In this document: positions 24,580-29,001 of the stretch, in pieces | Layout: every line of letters begins with the position of its first letter | Numbering within the stretch: position 1 is the first letter of the stretch | Assembly (NCBI RefSeq): GCF_035084215.1 | Contig: NC_090358.1 | Coordinates: forward strand, 1,488,001-1,552,000 | Direction of reading: 5' to 3' | Source: Heptranchias perlo | Lineage: Eukaryota | DNA: 64,000 nucleotides | Translations under genes and position numbers: made by a program | The notes under the pieces: model-generated | The model's database searches: none | Told to the model about the DNA's origin: nothing | What the model saw: only the letters and a program-made list of their open reading frames with translations

Positions 24580-27500
24580 TCACATCCCTCCACCATTGAC
24601 CTGGAGTCTCCACCAATTAAACAAACATTCATCTCCTCCACACTCTCCGCTGTCTTTCTCCCTTACCACCATACTTGGGATGCTTCACACCATCTCCAAC
24701 CTGTTCTCCGCTCCGGCTCCAAACTCTTTTGCCTCTTCCTGTGCTCTTTTCTCCTTCTGTTTCTTTCTCCTTCCGTTCTCTGGCGGTGTTCTCTGCCTGC
24801 TCTGCTCCACTCCGTCTTCCTGCTCCTTCTCCATCCTCCTCGTCCTTCAAGGGGCTTCCTTCTGCACGCTCGCAGCGGTTGGGGACTTTGTGACACCCAC
24901 CACAGCACTCTGCTCTACAGCTCCGAGCGATGGTAGCATAGTGGTTATGTTACTGGACTAAAATCCAGAGTCATGAGTTCAAATCCCGCCACGGCAGCTG
25001 GCGAATTTAAATTAAATTAACTAATTAAATTCAATTAATTAAATAAAAATCTGGAATTAAAACACTAGTATCAGTAATGGTGGCCATGAAATTACCGGAT
25101 TGTCGTAAAAACCCATCTGGTTCACTAATGTCCTTTAGGGAAGGAAGCCTGCCGTCCTTACCCGGTCTGGCCTATATGTGACTCCAGACCCACAGCAATG
25201 TGGTTGATTCTTAATTGCCCTCTGAAATGGCCCAGCAAGCCACTCAGTTGTAAAATCTCGCTACGAAAAGTCATAATAAGAATAAAACCGGACGGACCAC
25301 CCGGCATCGGACCACTAGGCACCGGACACGACAACGGCAAAACACCAAGCCCAGTCGACCCTGCAAGGTCCTCCTTACTAACATCTGGGGACTTGTGCCA
25401 AAATTGGGAGAGCTGTCCCACAGACTAGTCAAGCAACAGCCTGACATAACCATACTCACAGAATCATATCTTTCAGCCAACGTCCCAGACTCTTCCATCA
25501 CCATCCCTGGGTATGTCCTGTCCCACCGGCAGGACAGACCCACCAGAGGTGGCGGTACAGTGATATACAGTCAGGAGGGAGTGGCCCTGGGAGTCCTCAA
25601 CATTGACTCTGGACCCCATGAAATCTCATGGCATCAGGTCAAACATGGGCAAGGAAACCTCCTGCTGATTACCACCTACCGTCCTCCCTCAGCTGATGAA
25701 TCAGTCCTCCTCCATGTTGAACACCACTTGGAGGAAGCACTGAGGGTAGCAAGGGCACAAAATGTACTCTGGGTGGGGGACTTCAATGTCCATCACCAAG
25801 AGTGGCTCGGTAGCACCACGACTGACCGAGCTGGCCGAGTCCTGAAGGACATAGCTGCTAGACTGGGCCTGCGGCAGGTGCTGAGCGAACCAACACGAGG
25901 GAAAAACTTACTTGACCTCGTCCTCACCAATCTACCTGTCGCAAATGCATCTGTCCATGACAGTATTGGTAGGAGTGACCACCGCACAGTCCTCGTGGAG
26001 ATGAAATCCCGTCTTCGCACTGAGGACACCATCCAACGTGTTGTGTGGCACTACCACCGTGCTAAATGGGATAGATTCAGAACAGATCTAGCAGCTCAAA
26101 ACTGGGCATCCATGAGGCGCTGTGGGCCATCAGCAGCAGCAGAATTGTATTCCAGCACAATCTGTAACCTCATGGCCCGGCATATTCCTCACTCTACCAT
26201 TACCAACAAGCCAGGGGATCAACCCTGGTTCAATGAGGAGTGTAGAAGAGCATGCCAGGAGCAGCACCAGGCGTACCTAAAAATGAGGTGCCAACCTGGT
26301 GAAGCGACAACTCAGGACTACATGCATGCTAAACAGCGGAAGCAACATGCTATAGACAGAGCTAAGCGATTCCACAACCAACGGATCAGATCAAAGCTCT
26401 GCAGTCCTGCCACATCCAGTCATGAATGGTGGTGGACAATTAAACAACTAACGGGAGGAGGAGGCTCTGCAAACATCCCCATTCTCAACGATGGCAGAGT
26501 CCAGCACGTGAGTGCAAAAGACAAGGCTGAAGCGTTTGCAACCATCTTCAGCCAGAAGTGCCGAGTGGATAATCCATCTCAGCCTCCTCCCGATATCCCC
26601 ACCATCACGGAAGCCAGTCTTCGGCCAATTCGATTCACTCCACGTGATATCAAGAAACGGCTGAGTGCACTGGATACAGCAAAGGCTATGGGCCCCGACA
26701 ACATCCCAGCTGTAGTGCTGAAGACTTGTGCTCCAGAACTAGCTGCGCCTCTAGCCAAGCTGTTCCAGTACAGCTACAACACTGGCATCCACCCGACAAT
26801 GTGGAAAATTGCCCAGGTATGTCCTGTCCACAAAAAGCAGGACAAATCCAATCCGGCCAATTACCGCCCCATCAGTCTACTCTCAATCATCAGCAAAGTG
26901 ATGGAAGGTGTCGTCGACAGTGCTATCAAGCGGCACTTACTCACCAATAACCTGCTCCCCGATGCTCAGTTTGGGTTCCGCCAGGACCACTCGGCTCCAG
27001 ACCTCATTACAGCCTTGGTCCAAACATGGACAAAAGAGCTGAATTCCAGAGGTGAGGTGAGAGTGACTGCCCTTGACATCAAGGCAGCATTTGACCGAGT
27101 GTGGCACCAAGGAGCCCTAGTAAAATTGAAGTCAATGGGAATCAGGGGGAAAACTCTCCAGTGGCTGGAGTCATACCTAACACAAAGGAAGATGGTAGTG
27201 GTTGTTGGAGGCCAATCATCTCAGCCCCAGGGCATTGCTGCAGGAGTTCCTCAGGGCAGTGTCCTAGGCCCAACCATCTTCAGCTGCTTCATCAATGACC
27301 TTCCCTCCATCATAAGGTCAGAAATGGGGATGTTCGCTGATGACTGCACAGTGTTCAGTTCCATTCGCAACCCCTCAGATAATGAAGCAGTCCGAGCCTG
27401 CATGCAGCAAGACCTGGACAACATCCAGGCTTGGGCTCATAAGTGGCAAGTAACATTCGCGCCAGATAAGTGCCAGGCAATGACCATCTCCAACAAGAGA

Positions 27501-29001
27501 GTCTAACCACCTCCCCTTGACATTCAACGGCATTACCATCGCCGAATCCCCCACCATCAACATCCTGGGGGTCACCATTGACCAGAAACTTAACTGGACC
27601 AGCCATATAAATACTGTGGCTACGAGAGCAGGTCAGAGGCTGGGTATTCTGCAGCGAGTGACTCACCTCCTGACTCCCCAAAGCCTTTCCACCATCTACA
27701 AGGCACAAGTCAGGAGTGTGATGGAATACTCTCCACTTGCCTGGATGAGTGCAGCTCCAACAACACTCAAGAAGCTCGACACCATCCAAGATAAAGCAGC
27801 CCGCTTGATTGGCACCCCATCCACCACCCTAAACATTCACTCCCTTCACCACCGACGCACTGTGGCTGCAGTGTGTACCATCCACAGGATGCACTGCAGC
27901 AACTCGCCAAGGCTTCTTCGACAGCACCTCCCAAACCCGCGACCTCTACCACCTAGAAGGACAAGAGCAGCAGGCACATGGGAACAACACCACCACCTGC
28001 ACGTTCCCCTCCAAGTCACACACCATCCCGACTTGGAAATATATCGCCGTTCCTTCATCGTCGCTGGGTCAAAATCCTGGAACTCCCTTCCTAACAGCAC
28101 TGTGGGAGAACCGTCACCACACGGACTGCAGCGGTTCAAGAAAGCGGCTCACCACCACCTTCTCAAGGGCAATTAGGGATGGGCAATAAATGCTGGCCTC
28201 GCCAGCGACGCCCACATCGTGTGAACGAATAAATAAAAAAAAACTCAGCTCCGAGTGATGTGTCCCGACTCTCTGCAGTTAAAACAGAACAGGTCTGGAC
28301 AGTTTTATAAAAGGTGGTCACGTCCAGGACAATGGTAGGAAACCTTAACCTGGTAATTGTACTGCACTTCCTCCATCATCTCAAACTTCATTCTGTAAGG
28401 TAGAGGCCTTACCCCCTCTGGGAACCGCACCTTCACATAACGGGTTCCACTACTCCCCTTCCTGGGTAATGTCTGCTACTTCCAGCACCACAGATTTTAA
28501 TGTCCCACTGCTCCAGATTTTTTAATTAGGACTTCGTCCTTGATATAAAAATTTAAAAATGAGACCACCATCTCCTCAGAGAACAGTAGAGACACCTCCA
28601 GGATCTTACCTCCAACCTTAAACTCTCTAAAAGTCTTTCCAGCTTCCTTCCCAGTAGTCCTCATGCATGGCCTGGATAATATCCCAGGCTCTTATCCCCT
28701 TATCGTCACTGTGGTCCATCACCACATTCTCCGTCCCAAACCCTTGTGCCTCTTCTCCCTTCCCCCAACAATTTCTTCCCTGGTTAAATTCATCCCGGGA
28801 ACATCGTCCTCTGAGGGTCCCTACACTCCGACCCCTGCCCCCACCCCAGGGACACTTCGAGCCCACCCCGGCTGCTGTTTATAGAACAAAGACCCGCCAA
28901 AAAACAAATCAAAACTCACCACCAACTTTTTCCAACCTGATCTAACTCAAACCGCCCCCAGCTATCAAACACCAAACAGCACCCTCTCTCTCCACCCTCT
29001 C
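24580..29001 (-). mobile_element. Decayed Tx1-clade (L1 superfamily) 5'UTR + ORF1, Mutsu-like, split by the 3.3-kb LINE
   Basis: Minus-strand translation of ~28460-28246: GTRYVKVRFPEGVRPLPYRMKFE...QVKV..HC...H..*NCPDLFCFNCRESGHITRSC (CCHC knuckles of Tx1/ZCCHC3-type ORF1). It continues left of the TSD as RAECCGGCHKVPNRCE and an acidic/basic tail. The 5' end abuts 5S nt 22. Confidence 0.75.
24933..28243 (+). mobile_element. Full-length 3.3-kb single-ORF non-LTR retrotransposon (APE endonuclease + RT) with tRNA-derived 5' head; clade uncertain (CR1-group/RTEX-like)
   Basis: APE motifs (TNIWG, LTES, YRPP, GDFN, SDH) and RT motifs ([32 protein letters not shown]). A box TAGCATAGTGG 24934-24944, B box GTTCAAATCC 24977-24986, poly(A) tail. 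15-bp TSD cagctccgagYgatg at 24918-24932 and 28246-28260. In-frame ATG 25227, TAA 25251, 2-bp deletion at ~27500. Confidence 0.95.

Follow-up and report, generated by a model that had tools for sequence, protein, structure and literature searches.

The window analysed here, a stretch of 64,000 nucleotides (nt) from the genome of the shark Heptranchias perlo (NC_090358.1, positions 1,488,001 to 1,552,000), contains on its plus strand, at positions 24933-28243, a full-length 3.3-kb copy of a young and abundant long interspersed element (LINE) of the CR1 group. The element starts with a tRNA-like head in which the boxes of a promoter for RNA polymerase III (Pol III) are predicted, continues with a single open reading frame (ORF) for an endonuclease and a reverse transcriptase (RT), and is depleted of T-runs on its sense strand. 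Its features are listed below with the basis of the assignment in brackets (UTR, untranslated region; SINE, short interspersed element).

24918-24932 (+), left target-site duplication, 15 nt with one mismatch to the right copy (sequence; exact core of 10 nt)
24933-28243 (+), tRNA-headed single-ORF CR1-group LINE, full-length but for a few missing bases where the head starts (Pfam APE and RT domains; copy alignment)
24933-25000 (+), tRNA-Gln-like head (Rfam tRNA score, alignment to genomic tRNA-Gln; the 20-nt internal duplication of most copies is absent here)
24934-24944 (+), predicted A box of a type-2 Pol III promoter (sequence; column conservation)
24975-24986 (+), predicted B box (11 nt identical to the B box of genomic tRNA-Gln)
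25001-25268 (+), 5′ UTR made up of an AT-rich spacer and a body, also present in an older family of SINEs (25 SINE copies aligned to 5′ ends of the LINE)
25227-25253 (+), very short upstream ORF, in frame with the main one and ending just 5′ of it (ATG; stop after 2 or 8 codons)
25254-28176 (+), APE-RT frame (973 amino acids (aa) in intact copies; first Met is residue 250)
25469-25473 (+), TCTTT, a non-canonical terminator (the only widely shared site of an efficient class; derived in young copies)
28177-28243 (+), 3′ UTR, which includes AATAAA at 28185, and poly(A) tail, in common with the SINE
28246-28260 (+), right target-site duplication (first downstream TTTT at 28303)

A first-look genome search with the 5′ 476 nt of the element yielded 1114 candidates, of which 40 were scored and 38, picked on their head, were fetched. 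All but one of these top 38 genomic copies align to the window copy through the poly(A) tail, with 95-98.5% identity, and most of them start with GGGTACGG, followed by the A box. Copies of the family are dispersed, show 5′ truncation and end 3′ in an A-rich stretch. Diagnostic variants are distributed as a mosaic across the copies (L031-L068, L214-L273), which suggests many source elements together with recombination or template switching. Target-site specificity was considered and rejected, as the flanks are unrelated and the duplications are mostly short or could not be found.

The tRNA-like head

In a comparison limited to the tRNA-Gln, tRNA-Cys and tRNA-Thr genes of the genome, the head aligned best, and from position +1 on, to the tRNA-Gln genes, with scores of 58-68 versus maxima of 38-44 for shuffled sequences; the scores for tRNA-Cys and tRNA-Thr were 51-54. 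Against the tRNA model of Rfam it reached 21.3 bits, under the cut-off of 29 bits, and ARAGORN did not call a tRNA in it. The columns of the A and B boxes are 95-100% conserved across 78-79 copies, with the youngest copies included. As the 38 fetched copies had been selected on the head, 24 further copies were added which were selected on the ORF alone and independently of the head. Thirteen of these extend into the head's first 7 nt and one enters at nt 40; the remaining ten are cut short and have mutually unrelated flanks, and none of the 24 exhibits an alternative shared 5′ end. The tRNA-Gln-like head starts at the first base of the element and is fixed at its 5′ end.

In most copies, 20 nt of the anticodon arm (window 24950-24970) are duplicated, which lengthens the distance between the A and the B box, and a minority including the window copy lacks this duplication. 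The fold of the 5′ UTR has a z-score of -2.8, which mostly originates from the head duplication and an AT hairpin, and no structure is claimed from it. No ribozyme match was obtained in the 5′ UTR with Rfam, where HDV-like forms were sought and degenerate ones could escape. Elsewhere in the genome, one contig (C23; L274-L303) carries large tandem tRNA-Cys clusters with interspersed tRNA-Thr genes.

T-runs in the window copy

A preliminary description of the window, made from its sequence alone, had reported that the sense strand of the element lacks runs of four or more T and includes only seven TTT runs. Both counts are correct: at a T content of 20.0%, 24933-28243 does not contain any TTTT (T4), and its seven TTT runs are located exactly at the positions listed there. 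The other bases form 21 A4, 13 C4 and 6 G4 runs in the same interval, and the element lies inside the longest TTTT-free gap of the plus strand of the window (24747-28303). The description also proved accurate for the sister copies, with no T4 at 30779-31927 and 47442-48220 and with all three T4 of the minus-strand sister (37650, 37721 and 37742) falling within its nested insertion (37602-37821), as well as for a sense TTTT in a neighbouring CR1 fragment (36196) and for Phe codons being mostly TTC (15 of 20 in the intact copy L061). It had overlooked TCTTT at 25469-25473, which belongs to a non-canonical terminator class.

The expectation of about five TTTT and more than 20 TTT runs, which had been put forward along with these counts, holds under a null model that keeps the base composition only (whole element: 4.3 T4 expected, probability of none (P0) 0.015; 21 TTT expected, P < 0.001). 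It does not hold under a dinucleotide null (2.2 T4 expected, P0 0.11; 14 TTT expected, P 0.029). Synonymous-codon shuffling, which had been proposed as a check, gave a marginal result for T4 in the intact ORF of L061 (2.5 expected, P0 0.05) and a lower probability for TTT (7 versus 14 expected, P 0.002); in the 750-aa frame of the window copy 1.7 T4 were expected (P0 0.14). Taken alone, the complete absence of TTTT is weak, marginal evidence.

Family-wide depletion of terminator-like sites

For human Pol III, termination signals have been ranked as T4/T5 > T3VT2 and T2VT3 > TVT3 and T3VT > T2VT2, with T2GT2 and isolated T3 being nearly inactive (PMC3141230, excerpt), and TTTT and TVTTT have been given as the shortest working signals (PMC8466645, excerpt). 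A wider terminator-like class was defined here as every site with at least four T within 5 nt. The ORF of copy L052 contains two such sites (0.7 per kb) versus 7.0 expected (P 0.009), and its clusters of A, C and G are at expectation and not depleted. The window copy contains 1.2 sites per kb.

All of the 76 control LINE ORFs of at least 400 aa exhibit at least 5.3 wide-class sites per kb. Seventy of them are from metagenomes, where 80 loci were taken and five without a frame of 300 aa and five more below 400 aa were dropped; the other six are shark ORFs (T 0.20-0.21), which represent about two Tx1-like families; L2 copies were too broken to be included. All 46 host exons (60 loci taken, 14 dropped as repeats of an exon) contain at least 4.4 sites per kb, three of them at a lower T content (0.18-0.19). 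Among 60 composition-matched 1-kb windows of the shark genome (T 0.18-0.22), none had one wide-class site or fewer, and six were without T4. The ratio of observed to expected T clusters in the element, 0.29, is the lowest among 224 base-by-ORF tests.

The depletion is also visible from copy to copy. Thirty of the 38 copies lack T4, and the T4 of the others are confined to single copies, to inserts or to the tail. A T4 at element nt 571 (4 of 103 copies) was considered as the mark of a source lineage and rejected, as it is recurrent and does not define a clade. No T4, T2VT3, T3VT2, T3VT or T2AT2 site reaches 15% sharing among 21 older or 82 young copies, and the sites that are fixed in the family belong to the weakest classes only (two T2CT2, one T2GT2). 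One DNA fragment of the most similar invertebrate clade (L110, without its 5′ end) contains two T4 and 5.2 sites per kb. The depletion of T-runs is real, family-wide, specific for T on the sense strand and outside the range of all 122 control ORFs. As the element concerned has a tRNA-type head that is fixed, selection for read-through by Pol III is its best single explanation.

Coding frame, selection and phylogenetic place

The element encodes an APE endonuclease followed by an RT in one frame (PF14529/PF03372 and PF00078). In intact copies this is a single frame of 973 aa, whose first Met follows the endonuclease domain, with no ATG before it; 23 copies hold frames of at least 969 aa, and the frame of the window copy is split by a 2-nt deletion near 27496. 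Only about 350 nt lie upstream of the frame, so that, unlike in canonical vertebrate CR1, no ORF1 precedes ORF2. Among 103 copies, shared variants comprise 52 synonymous and 31 non-synonymous changes and no stops, and single-copy variants comprise 452 synonymous and 1071 non-synonymous changes and 49 stops. The APE-RT protein is under purifying selection in the headed lineages; as shared variants are mostly synonymous and free of stops, headed source elements need this protein.

The ATG of the upstream ORF is present in all 37 anchored copies, an early TAG in 16 of them and a TAA before the main frame in 36. A conserved upstream ORF of eight codons was nevertheless rejected, as 16 of the 37 copies stop after two codons. 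Most SINE copies have GTG where the upstream ORF of the LINE has ATG.

The closest proteins are CR1-group RTs of 930-990 aa, some of which are named from amphioxus and crustaceans; proteins named from sharks include pieces of the element itself. In the RT tree the element belongs to the CR1 group, which is split with a support of 100/100 from two Tx1-like rows (midpoint root; the position within the group is not settled by this tree). Its identity to the canonical CR1 proteins of the same genome is 26-33%, and the tree does not join it with them, leaving this fork open. The element is possibly CR1-Zenon-like. Nothing close to its protein was found in viral and prokaryote collections. The Tx1-like elements of the genome include intact two-ORF copies (L069 and L070 on contigs C38 and C13) which recur at a spacing of about 7 kb, and this spacing suggests tandem arrays or a repeated target.

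The companion SINE

An older SINE family (L189-L213) consists of the head and 5′ UTR of the LINE joined to its last ~110 nt. It has 9184 candidates in the genome, with ~80% identity, of which 25 copies were aligned with LINE 5′ ends. On the coordinates of L052, the joint leads from ~625 to 3490-3541 in contigs of X1, X10 and X13 and from 622 to 3538 in X6. The SINE is likely either an internal-deletion derivative of the LINE or the donor of its head. It is of the bipartite type and derives from a CR1-group LINE, a clade outside those listed in the available part of PMC5786205. A further diverged repeat of ~240 nt (L081:2761-2970; 1606 candidates) shares the 3′ end of the LINE at ~68-75%.

Proposed transcription by Pol III and alternative explanations

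Judged from its sequence, the element is probably an autonomous LINE which is transcribed by Pol III from the A and B boxes of its head. Transcription would start at the GGG of the head (tRNA +1), continue past the poly(A) tail and end where the flank has its first T-run (28303 for the window copy), as it does for SINE transcripts. Source copies gaining a TTTT would produce a 3′-truncated RNA that could not be copied, and we propose that T-runs are purged because such sources would yield no full-length template. As no AUG opens the frame, ribosomes on the uncapped RNA would probably reinitiate after the upstream ORF or start at a near-cognate codon, and the protein would then use its own RNA as the template for target-primed reverse transcription. 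A slight balance of probability favours the broader idea that this uncapped 3.3-kb Pol III RNA serves as AUG-less mRNA and as transposition template at once, and that the requirement of read-through has altered the synonymous positions of a gene of 973 codons in several sharks.

Selection for Pol III read-through had already been proposed in the preliminary description, together with the view that it independently supports the finding given before it. The proposal gains from the T-specific, family-wide depletion on a tRNA-headed element and loses from the marginal significance of zero TTTT, the restriction to one family and the rise of TCTTT; the support is moderate and does not amount to strong independent proof. 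Several results weigh against it. Zero T4 is not significant under the dinucleotide null or some codon nulls (P0 0.05-0.16). The 23 intact copies hold 2-6 wide-class sites (median 3) versus 5.9-7.5 expected, with P values of 0.006-0.46 under a codon-preserving null. Only six of the 23 reach P ≤ 0.05 (13 for the efficient classes), which makes L052 a favourable pick; this null is, however, conservative, as the T-poor codon usage of the element is retained in it. In evolutionary terms the family amounts to a single data point, and among the 224 tests the G clusters of control L171 have a ratio of 0.34, near the 0.29 of the element. TCTTT at element nt 566 (window 25469) arose by a synonymous C-to-T change and is carried by 53 of 82 young copies, the T allele being present in two of 21 older ones, and no other site of an efficient class is widely shared. 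TCT3 causes ~50% termination in human assays (PMC3141230 and PMC8466645, excerpts), and the context in the element may differ. Furthermore, one of 75 related LINEs, the distant CR1-group LINE L174 (a 3018-nt metagenome contig with 24% T and free of TTTT over its full length), has no T4 versus 5.6 expected. Its wide-class count is normal (20 versus 21 expected) and no head was seen, though its 5′ end is missing, so that L174 is either a chance case or a second candidate; among host exons, one of 46 is without T4. Avoidance of Phe at the protein level is not significant (z -1.1), and shared variants stratified by CpG did not show measurable avoidance of terminators, in a test without power (0.5-3 expected). 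A comparison of shared with private variants was set aside, as most of the shared T gains, of which none of 61 is terminator-like, are recurrent CpG changes. The family, its head region and the SINE junction are present in contigs from four runs, four studies and four organisms, yet such transcriptome-like contigs cannot reveal the polymerase, start, strand or cap. Finally, translation of an uncapped RNA is the weak link of the proposed mechanism.

Such an RNA would not be needed if the element were an ordinary LINE transcribed by RNA polymerase II (Pol II), with a 5′ end captured from a SINE, the head being a passenger or a Pol II promoter and the T depletion a T-poor codon or dinucleotide bias of other cause. 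A cap would account for translation, LINEs are regarded as products of Pol II (PMC5786205, excerpt; PMC10886601), and the AATAAA in the 3′ UTR, the P0 of 0.11 under the dinucleotide null and the tolerance of TCTTT in the young lineage all fit. We nevertheless regard this explanation as rather unlikely: T clusters are 4-8 times more frequent in host Pol II exons and in other LINEs whose T content is equal or lower, the depletion is T-specific, the element starts at the exact tRNA +1 with intact boxes, and two AATAAA within its first 380 nt do not favour Pol II either. Less likely still is a division of labour between the two polymerases, in which a Pol III template RNA explains the purge of T-runs and the protein is translated from capped RNA made by Pol II on the same or on other copies. 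That source lineages keep the ORF under purifying selection is easiest to understand if the template RNA itself is translated, and the frame lacks an opening AUG even for a capped RNA. On the other hand, head and purge would be explained without translation of uncapped RNA, and the family is rich in copies, with 1114 first-look candidates for the 5′ end, and occurs widely in transcriptome-like contigs. The large gap to the 122 control ORFs and the intact promoter boxes of the youngest copies make it very improbable that the depletion is historical or accidental, i.e., a now decaying remnant of a former use of Pol III, or a tail event, even if one family is a single data point, rank 1 of 224 (~0.5%) was obtained for a feature chosen after looking, and the sole terminator-affecting change among 18 T gains of the young lineage is a gain. 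Taken together, the element is real and unusual, and the explanation that fits best, still unproven, is read-through by Pol III.

Relation to known elements

CR1-group LINEs of marine invertebrates (Branchiostoma belcheri, Petrolisthes, Scylla) likewise encode APE and RT in one protein of 930-990 aa. The best matches share 40-49% identity over the C-terminal half, and 5′ truncation and a poly(A) tail are also common to both. The shark element differs from them by its tRNA head, the lack of a leading AUG and the depletion of T clusters; the head was not found in those metagenome relatives for which DNA is available. 'CR1-Zenon-like' LINEs have been reported in the whale shark (bioRxiv 443036, excerpt).

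SINE2 elements, including the bipartite CoeSINE4, SINE2_Gav and Bov-tA (PMC5786205, excerpt), consist of a tRNA head with A and B boxes, a LINE 5′ UTR and a LINE tail, a layout which the companion SINE shares. The LINE itself, unlike these short, non-coding and partner-dependent elements, has 3.3 kb and a selected 973-aa frame behind the head. According to the same excerpt, SINEs cannot encode protein, the middle parts of bipartite SINEs have been found from RTE and Vingi only, and RTE-1_DAn and elements related to it (Repbase) are LINEs with tRNA-like sequence, as described here, but belong to the RTE clade. Among the papers searched, this one alone mentions RTE-1_DAn, and the excerpt gives no position, promoter function or T-run content for it. 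In the shark pairs HE1/HER1, SacSINE1 and CmiSINE/L2-2_CM a tRNA-SINE and a LINE share their tail; the excerpts of PMC5499810 and PMC3747384 report homology of the tail only and do not describe a LINE with a head. Pol III promoters outside the SINE class, as proposed here, are known from Cassandra, Helenus and Ajax, which are, unlike the shark element, long terminal repeat elements of small size that are non-autonomous and do not code for protein (PMC10886601). Nothing on headed LINEs is contained in the available parts of PMC10294476, PMC11481361 and PMC7245038, and searches of the openly readable literature turned up no account of an autonomous LINE transcribed by Pol III. As subscription papers, Repbase, Dfam and supplements lie outside this search, the family may already be catalogued.

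By the standard division, LINEs are coding and transcribed by Pol II and SINEs are non-coding and transcribed by Pol III (PMC10886601; PMC5786205, excerpt). A natural Pol III RNA acting as mRNA and template would, if true, break this division, offer a vertebrate in which translation of an RNA without cap and leading AUG can be tested, and demonstrate that avoidance of terminators acts on a coding sequence. Even if transcribed by Pol II, the element connects a LINE with a SINE that has its head, UTR and tail, and it does so in a clade other than RTE and Vingi. As many intact copies exist, it is directly testable.

Neighbouring features of the window

Besides the full-length copy, the window contains three truncated sisters and a host gene.

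30777-31926 (+), 5′-truncated sister copy, 96%
37129-39228 (-), 5′-truncated sister copy with a nested palindromic insert (37602-37821)
47444-48220 (+), 5′-truncated sister copy, 92%
23176-23760, 12470-12985 and 14788-15210 (-), exons of a host BTB-domain gene

The LINE lies ~1.2 kb upstream of the first-exon frame of the BTB-domain gene, which is on the opposite strand and which we take to be BTBD1/2-like; a frame at 3659-4054 (-) resembles C15orf40. The insert in the minus-strand sister is a near-perfect palindrome of 220 nt, and two further copies (L033 and L063) include inserts with T4 runs of similar spacing.

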